Below, piece by piece: positions 20,572 to 20,885 of a stretch of 64,000 nucleotides of DNA. The DNA is from Escherichia coli (GTDB taxonomy: Bacteria > Pseudomonadota > Gammaproteobacteria > Enterobacterales > Enterobacteriaceae): NCBI RefSeq assembly GCF_030013205.1, contig NZ_CP122648.1. One strand, written 5' to 3'. Each line of letters begins with the position of its first letter. Position 1 is the first letter of the stretch. Made by a program: the position numbers and the translations under genes. The notes under the pieces were generated by a model. The model searched no databases, had not been told where the DNA came from, and was given only the letters and a program-made list of their open reading frames with translations.

Positions 20572-20885
20572 CGGGGATTATTTTTACATTGCATATTATT
20601 ACCAGAAGCGACTGGAATACTAAGCACATCATAAAAATTATCATCACCTGGTATATCTGAAACACACGAAAGCATACCTAAAGTTATGCTGTATAAACAT
20701 GTGGCTAATCCCAAGGGGATCGATTCCAGAAATCGGGTTCAACGGATACTGATAAAAATTCCACCTACCTTCCAGCCCAATCGGAGCCTGAGTGTTATAC
20801 CGCCCCTGCTGCGGTTAATGTTACCGATAATAGTTATAGTACAGCCCTGATTCATCATCATACTACTGCTGCGGCAGTCTGATGA
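20572..20885 (-). pseudogene. degenerate orphan rhs core-end fragment
   Basis: Nucleotide homology to the rhsB core end at 22665..22800 (ggattcaacggatactgataaaaattcca...cagcccaatcgg); translation has in-frame stops. Confidence 0.6.

Follow-up and report, generated by a model that had tools for sequence, protein, structure and literature searches.

Orphan Tips of Rhs and CDI Proteins

Dissociated tips of rhs genes were described by Jackson et al. (2009), and their core parts are nearly identical to the upstream core (PMC2935791). An element of the same build is found in the 64,000-nt stretch of Escherichia coli DNA analyzed here (hereafter, the window): as in the dissociated tips, a partial core, a core-end repeat, a C-terminal tip and a small gene lie behind a full-length rhs gene. 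The base composition is also alike, the core being GC-rich and the tip AT-rich (here, 62% GC in the core vs. 37% in the orphan tip). Unlike the dissociated tips of Jackson et al., however, the core part of the orphan in the window is only 80% identical to its upstream counterpart and contains stops, and it is therefore regarded as an old, decayed example of a dissociated tip.

A second close system is the rhs-CT orphan of Salmonella Typhimurium LT2, which is functional, shares 522 bp at 95% identity with the main gene, and whose activation was selected (PMC3967940). As in LT2, the tip in the window is located downstream of a main rhs gene with which it has core-end homology, and recombination fuses the main gene to the orphan. 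The differences are that the orphan in the window is dead, that its homology covers 152 bp at 79.6% identity, in which no exact run exceeds 26 nt, and that the rare fusions are pseudogenes. The element thus shares with a recombination-competent orphan of the Salmonella type the observed fusions but not the long, near-identical homology.

A third case is that of the orphan cdiA-CT/cdiI modules. They begin at a VENN boundary motif, and many of them are functional with expressed immunity genes (PMC3150448). The element in the window resembles the CDI orphans in that a toxin tip without a start codon sets in at a conserved boundary motif and an immunity gene comes after it; it differs in belonging to the Rhs delivery family and in having a DPxGL rather than a VENN boundary. 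Furthermore, the orphans of E. coli EC93 and Salmonella LT2 are functional and their frames are intact, whereas the frames of the orphan in the window are broken. The toxin domain in question is of the Tlde1 type, a group of T6SS effectors whose LD-transpeptidase fold is altered and whose target is peptidoglycan (PMC9638812).

From the comparisons below, and with a probability of about 0.9, we read the fragment as the 5′ end of an Rhs C-terminal cassette that was displaced and has since decayed, namely, of an orphan rhs-CT/rhsI module. As a leftover of Rhs tip displacement, the element is a textbook case, and in itself it matters little.

Layout of the Locus

Annotation was taken from the RefSeq record of ETEC4067 and converted to window coordinates; positions 19000–23400 of the window are 100% identical to chromosomes of swine ETEC/O139:H1, for example, that of ETEC4067. 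All of the genes relevant here are on the minus strand. At one end of the locus, yhhJ (17862–18986, plus strand) is adjacent to an internally deleted ISAs1/ISEc1 (H-repeat) element (19142–19719, minus strand), in which an ISAs1 transposase pseudogene is annotated at 19177–19575 (minus strand) and which directly follows the Imm57 pseudogene at the end of the array. The Imm57 immunity gene itself (19750–20273, minus strand) carries the remark “frameshifted; internal stop.” Next comes the orphan, part of which (20645–20863, minus strand) is annotated by PGAP as a pseudogene of an RHS repeat-associated core domain-containing protein with an internal stop and a missing N-terminus. The orphan is thus already annotated as an Rhs pseudogene and is a known kind of element, in K-12 included. 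It is preceded by yibG (20896–21363, minus strand), encoding a Sel1-repeat protein, by a partial hypothetical gene (21376–21477, minus strand), by an IS1 transposase (21495–22192, minus strand) and by an “RHS element core protein; frameshifted” (22221–26365, minus strand), and nikR (26568–26969, minus strand) closes the locus. Because yibG follows the yibJ-type toxin tip, it is presumed to be the immunity partner in the module by which the orphan was displaced.

In only ~20 swine ETEC/O139 genomes does the array composed of the yibJ-type tip, yibG, the Tlde1 orphan and the Imm57 pseudogene occupy the rhsB position, with nikR and yhhJ on either side. In K-12 and nearly all other strains, the orphan is in the rhsA locus (yibF to yibH). 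For example, the order in the rhsA locus of K-12 BW25113 is rhsA, yibA, a yibJ-type orphan, yibG, this orphan, the Imm57 pseudogene and yibH, and the same placement in the rhsA locus is seen in O157:H7, D1, 2015C-3108, Z1323HEC0009, NCCP 13717 and B-766. If the first cassette, made up of the rhsA tip and yibA, is left out, the K-12 rhsA array equals the array in the window; the same shorter array, with an intact main gene, is seen in O157:H7. The main gene of the window had initially been called rhsB, which is right for its position, between nikR and yhhJ, but its yibJ-type tip and the array downstream are those normal for rhsA. The rhsA locus of the same strain harbors a different main rhs gene, a truncated remnant of the intact-type Tlde1 tip that lacks a core end, and also an intact Imm57. 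A combination of a crossover in the core with a crossover in the H-repeat is one possibility for how the array moved to the rhsB position.

The distal orphan of the K-12 rhsA locus and the orphan in the window are one and the same element: identity is 98.4% across 631 nt and complete (100%) in the 152 nt of the core end. The K-12 copy has the same stops and indels as the copy in the window, and it is likewise flagged by PGAP as a core fragment with an “internal stop” followed by a “frameshifted” Imm57. The allele of the window differs from the K-12 orphan by 2–3% in the flanking pseudogene parts.

The Core-End Remnant

A repeat search in the window found a direct repeat of 152 nt with 80% identity between 20734–20885 and 22667–22818, spaced by 1,933 nt; the latter segment (minus strand) is the homologous core end of the upstream full-length rhs gene. 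In an ungapped alignment, 121 of the 152 positions are identical (79.6%; blastn E = 1.4e-34), and identity is unbroken over 26, 14, and 13 nt in the three longest runs. When the orphan core end (minus strand) is read in the frame of the main copy, three stops appear, at 20863–20865 (TAG), 20821–20823 (TAA) and 20815–20817 (TAA), and the TQDPIGL of the main copy is changed to TQAPIGL. The two core-end peptides are 67% identical. With the stops masked as X, the orphan peptide matches positions 1203–1261 of the 1261 positions of NCBIfam RHS_core (NF041261), the last 5% of the model, with a score far under the whole-protein cut-off of 2000, and it gives 54.8 bits with TIGR03696, above the curated cut-off of 32.5. 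The pseudogene that PGAP calls in ETEC4067 agrees with this assignment. The homology begins 10 nt past the stop of yibG with no more core upstream of it, so the remnant has no N-terminal core, and at its other end the similarity between the orphan and the main gene stops at the boundary motif.

These results bear out most of what the initial annotation had said of the fragment. It had taken about 150 bp at 20735–20885 for a homolog of the rhsB core end, a segment that encodes DPIGL in the main copy, and had noted in-frame stops in the orphan; the alignment gives 152 nt, the minus-strand translation of the main copy agrees, and the stops have been mapped as above. The question of whether an alignment would rise above background is answered by an E-value of 1.4e-34 over 152 ungapped nt, and the description as a degenerate orphan rhs core-end fragment is borne out by homology, profile match and stops together. 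The span proposed, 20572–20885, needs division, however: 20734–20885 is indeed the core end, while 20572–20733 is the start of a toxin domain, out of frame. Nothing beyond the short length of the match speaks for a resemblance by chance or low complexity without true homology, and against it stand the E-value, the profile match over a curated cut-off and the collinearity with intact genes in the succession from core end through toxin to immunity gene; such a resemblance has practically no chance of being the explanation.

Among the 31 differences between the two core ends, 18 have G/C in the main copy where the orphan has A/T and seven go the opposite way, a bias that agrees with decay. Part of the 20% divergence could nevertheless stem from an origin in a different rhs lineage, not from decay. 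The RhsD/E subfamily was considered as the source of the diverged core end and rejected: the orphan core end has 80% identity with rhsA-type cores and 78% with the rhsD type (K-12 rhsD), and neither is a better parent.

Toxin and Immunity Parts and Their Lesions

The core frame of the orphan ends at 20707–20733 (minus strand) with a boundary motif of the PxxxxDPxGL type, in which alignment places DPLGI at 20707–20721. The region 20707–20745 is read as this type of motif, and an AT-rich, unrelated domain begins after it. Inside the motif, at ~20715, 1 nt has been inserted (GATCCCC vs. GACCCG of the intact type), and alignment to intact Rhs proteins reveals a 1-nt deletion in the toxin part within 20549–20566. 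The +1 and −1 indels compensate each other, so that only the stretch between them, ~20572–20733, is out of frame. The N-terminal part of the Tlde1-type toxin domain (20572–20706, minus strand), identified by alignment to the Rhs proteins of PE164 and 2013C-4282, is thus out of frame with both of its neighbors, and the C-terminal part (20278–20571, minus strand) is open for 97 codons.

The 97-codon remnant scores 20.2 bits with Pfam Tlde1_dom (PF10908), under the cut-off of 30.1, and 17.3 bits with YkuD; its intact homolog in PE164 reaches 33.7 bits with Tlde1_dom, above the same cut-off. The H...SEGC motif is retained in the remnant, which has neither a credible start nor a delivery domain. 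The toxin copy in the window is thus a truncated relic of a member of the Tlde1 domain family.

The toxin domain is followed 4 nt on by the Imm57-family pseudogene (19750–20273, minus strand), which alignment and PGAP identify as cognate to the orphan toxin; this arrangement is collinear with the intact pairs of 2013C-4282, PE164 and CUVET21-1780. A 1-nt deletion in the signal-peptide codons (20239–20255, ~codon 8) leads to the 26-codon product MAKLLTIVFFSLFLRVHLLQDNFRES followed by a stop, and an altered AAATA repeat at 19867–19890 brings another premature stop. This AAATA/AAAAT repeat is located toward the 3′ end of the pseudogene, and in K-12 and the intact alleles its length and sequence are different. 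An intact Imm57 homolog scores 150.7 bits with Pfam Imm57 (PF15596). Hence, both the toxin frame, by three stops and the +1/−1 indels, and the immunity frame, by a frameshift and a stop, are broken in the window. Among the features of an orphan rhs-CT/rhsI module, the core end, the boundary motif and the downstream immunity gene are all present here, and intact frames are not.

Intact relatives are found, for example, in two strains. The Rhs proteins of 2013C-4282 (WP_106907706.1, with the Imm57 protein WP_000113245.1) and PE164 (WP_096220420.1) have the same toxin and immunity types, and their genes, at 2681–7376 of the extracted 2013C-4282 locus and 6009–10187 of the extracted PE164 locus, lie next to yibH like the usual relic; the tip DNA is ~86–87% identical. 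Unlike the relic, these rhs genes have open frames and a main-type core end, and 2013C-4282 also has an intact immunity gene. In both strains, the full-length Rhs runs through PIPQGVWSWN...HSCLNAFGPSLGPRFCSEGCITG to a terminal TVTD, with Imm57 beginning 4 nt later, and the C-terminus contains ...NRGPIPQGVWSWN...THSCLNAFGPSLGPRFCSEGCITG...TLTVTD up to the stop.

Two side observations concern the start of the intact toxin domain. Right after DPLGL, the intact Rhs-Tlde1 proteins have a hydrophobic stretch ending in LSC, loosely like a lipoprotein signal with a lipobox. In CUVET21-1780, PGAP annotates a stand-alone “tlde1 domain-containing protein” of 135 aa whose start is the Met of MLSC.

Inactivation of the Main rhs Gene

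The full-length rhs gene at the rhsB position (22220–26365, minus strand, by alignment and annotation) is a pseudogene, too. Compared with four intact cores, that of the main gene lacks 16 bp at ~23396, a deletion by which the gene is split into ORFs of 1006 and 386 codons. Its toxin domain is broken by an IS1 of 768 bp (21479–22246, minus strand) flanked by an 8-bp target duplication, CTATAACA: the frame ends with ...GDAANLLI and a stop inside the inverted repeat of IS1, and the remainder of the domain resumes at 21376–21470. When IS1 is taken out, the tip is of the K-12 yibJ-orphan type and is followed by yibG. The main gene has, then, been inactivated twice, by the 16-bp deletion in the core and by IS1 in the toxin domain.

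A crossover between the two core ends of the window would delete 1,933 bp, namely, yibG, IS1 and a portion of the main toxin domain, and would join one pseudogene to another without exchange of a working toxin. In this swine ETEC lineage, the entire rhs locus is a graveyard of the main gene, the orphan toxin and the immunity gene, and because all of the three are dead, comparative surveys should leave the locus out when active toxin systems are counted.

Natural Recombinants

Products of recombination at the orphan were sought with a chimeric query, made of the main core and the orphan, in a set of 5,426 E. coli genomes. A core running contiguously into a Tlde1 tip was found in 374 genomes. 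The bulk of these are 88–90% identical to the query; one that was checked, 2013C-4282, is of the intact type, and the remaining genomes of the bulk are presumed to be the same. There are two outliers with identities of 92.6 and 91.9%, namely, PI24 (GCF_024585825.1) and EF7-18-51 (GCF_016944655.1). In PI24, a full-length rhs gene runs straight into a degenerate tip of the K-12 type followed by the Imm57 pseudogene, the DNA between having been deleted. In EF7-18-51, a yibJ core fragment runs straight into the orphan tip, and the yibJ tip and yibG are deleted. Diagnostic sites around the junctions (6230–6500 of the extracted locus in PI24, and likewise 6230–6500 in EF7-18-51) show main-type bases up to alignment column 214 and orphan-type bases from column 241 in PI24, which places the crossover in the 26-nt patch TGGAATTTTTATCAGTATCCGTTGAA; in EF7-18-51, they are main-type up to column 168 and orphan-type from column 183, placing the crossover in the 14-nt patch GCAGGGGCGGTATA.

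Both switches thus sit on the two longest patches of identity between the core ends. Efficient RecA-dependent exchange in E. coli takes ~25 bp or more of perfect identity and drops steeply with divergence via mismatch repair; the confinement of the crossovers to the two longest patches fits this need. PI24 and EF7-18-51 are derived recombinants, because their tips are close to the K-12 orphan but their core ends lack the orphan substitutions. The converse, that PI24 represents an ancestor, was considered and rejected: its tip is near-identical to the K-12-type orphan, and its core end is without the ~25 orphan-specific substitutions upstream of the 26-nt patch. Each junction is known from one of the 5,426 genomes, and since PI24 and EF7-18-51 are represented by one assembly each, either could conceivably be an assembly error. 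The rhs gene of PI24 is annotated as frameshifted and missing its C-terminus, so the product of the fusion is a pseudogene. Overall, the orphan is able to recombine, albeit rarely, and the events observed are singletons with dead fusions as their products.

Two claims on recombination had been made from the DNA of the window at first sight. That the orphan can recombine with the main gene is upheld insofar as a full-length core (PI24) and a yibJ core (EF7-18-51) have been fused to it; these are one genome each, and dead. That it serves as a usable substrate for toxin-domain displacement is not supported, given that the orphan toxin, Imm57 and the main rhs gene are all dead and the homology is 152 bp at 80%.

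The second claim amounts to a live, silent toxin/immunity module that could be loaded onto the main rhs gene by homologous recombination to change the weapon. The architecture of an orphan module, the two natural fusions (one main-by-orphan and one orphan-by-orphan) and the switching documented in Salmonella (PMC3967940) would all suit such a module. They are outweighed by the state of the parts: the toxin is broken by three stops and two frameshifts, the signal peptide of Imm57 contains a frameshift, and the main rhs gene here is already dead. The lesions are not peculiar to the window, either, since 10 K-12-type copies that were aligned or fetched have the same lesions or the PGAP flags “internal stop” and “frameshifted”; for the remaining ~3,500 copies, the lesions are deduced from high identity. 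Moreover, the fusion in PI24 is annotated as a frameshifted, truncated rhs gene, either junction occurs in one genome only, and 152 bp at 80% stands against the 522 bp at 95% of Salmonella. At the level of sequence, a live cassette is largely refuted, and we hold it to be highly improbable.

A more modest statement is that a pseudogenized remnant of 152 bp with 80% identity is still able to mediate deletions in nature, and that patches of 26 and 14 nt are a practical lower bound of the homology that reshuffles rhs arrays.

Origin of the Orphan

The fragment is better read as a product of past displacement than as a live reservoir. Following the work on Rhs and CDI modules (PMC2935791; PMC3150448), we infer an earlier cassette at the tip of the gene, an incoming cassette and later decay. 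The orphan cassette would once have been the tip of a full-length rhs gene, comprising a core end with the PxxxxDPxGL boundary, a Tlde1-type toxin, which would be L,D-transpeptidase-like and target peptidoglycan, and a periplasmic Imm57. A newer yibJ-type/yibG cassette with ~150 nt of core may have come in by a single homologous crossover in the core, and, in line with the model of Jackson et al. (PMC2935791), the old tip would have been shunted downstream with 152 nt of core. Unexpressed since then, the old tip would have gained stops, substitutions biased toward AT and two frameshifts, and a frameshift would also have struck its immunity gene. Its only residual activity would be that of a short, diverged patch of homology, where rare crossovers may delete the intervening DNA and fuse a core to the dead tip. 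The fragment itself would now seem to have no gene function.

Distribution and Conservation

A query of 631 nt (20270–20900) found matches in 3,685 of the 5,426 complete E. coli genomes, i.e., in about two thirds of them, and the features annotated under the matches are almost always yibG, an RHS fragment and Imm57. The 314 nt at 20572–20885 are matched in 3,629 of the 5,426 genomes, in 3,381 of those at 99% identity or more.

One result speaks against simple neutral decay: in eight sampled copies, the 152 nt of the core end are invariant, and the flanks are variable. The fragment might accordingly have been kept for another role, as a 3′-UTR or regulatory RNA of yibG, a promoter for the sequence downstream, a small protein encoded on the plus strand, or a selected landing pad for cassettes that come in. 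The numbers in its favor are the 0 variable sites in the 152 nt among the eight sampled genomes, as against 5–29 in flanking segments including yibG, and the share of copies at ≥99% identity, 3,381 of 3,629 for the 314 nt vs. 18 of 3,683 for a piece of equal size from the Imm57 pseudogene. In addition, two thirds of E. coli have kept the relic, and a plus-strand ORF of 54 aa (20686–20850) is intact in K-12, too. However, the contrast for the 314 nt is in essence a single comparison, that of the diverged allele of the window with a tight cluster of copies in rhsA loci; when the window is left out, ~2 variable sites are expected and 0 observed (P ~0.15). We regard the invariance as a weak signal and not as evidence for a function. 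The stretch without window-specific differences extends from 20700 to 20887.

Searches for particular kinds of function gave little. No Rfam family was matched in 18500–27000, no terminator-like sites were found, and promoter-like sites were at chance level (nine found vs. 9.6 expected), so that a role as promoter or terminator was rejected. The RNA fold is unexceptional (z = +0.46), and with neither this nor an Rfam match in its favor, a structured RNA or known RNA family was rejected. Small ORFs at 20686–20850 (plus strand), 20556–20714 (minus strand) and 20278–20571 (minus strand) have no NCBIfam match, the only similarities being the sub-threshold ones to Tlde1 and YkuD. They were likewise rejected as genes, having no family match; the 52-aa ORF at 20556–20714 is what is left, from one indel to the other, of the toxin's original frame. 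It is common for a frame to be open on the strand opposite a conserved coding sequence. Taken together, retention for another role of this kind is very improbable; the narrower proposal, that the 152-nt remnant is held constant as a docking or crossover site for cassette turnover or for another sequence role, for example as a yibG 3′-UTR, is equally doubtful, although, if true, it could account for the persistence of a dead cassette in two thirds of the species together with the invariance of the 152 nt.

Outside E. coli, an exact 22-mer of the orphan core end has no match in 100,044 species representatives. A 26-mer of the toxin part was found in other species in two Amycolatopsis contigs only. 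These, NZ_ASJB01000019.1 (330 bp) and NZ_ASXG01000044.1 (258 bp) of Amycolatopsis orientalis, are 96–97% identical to the E. coli orphan toxin and are probably E. coli contamination.
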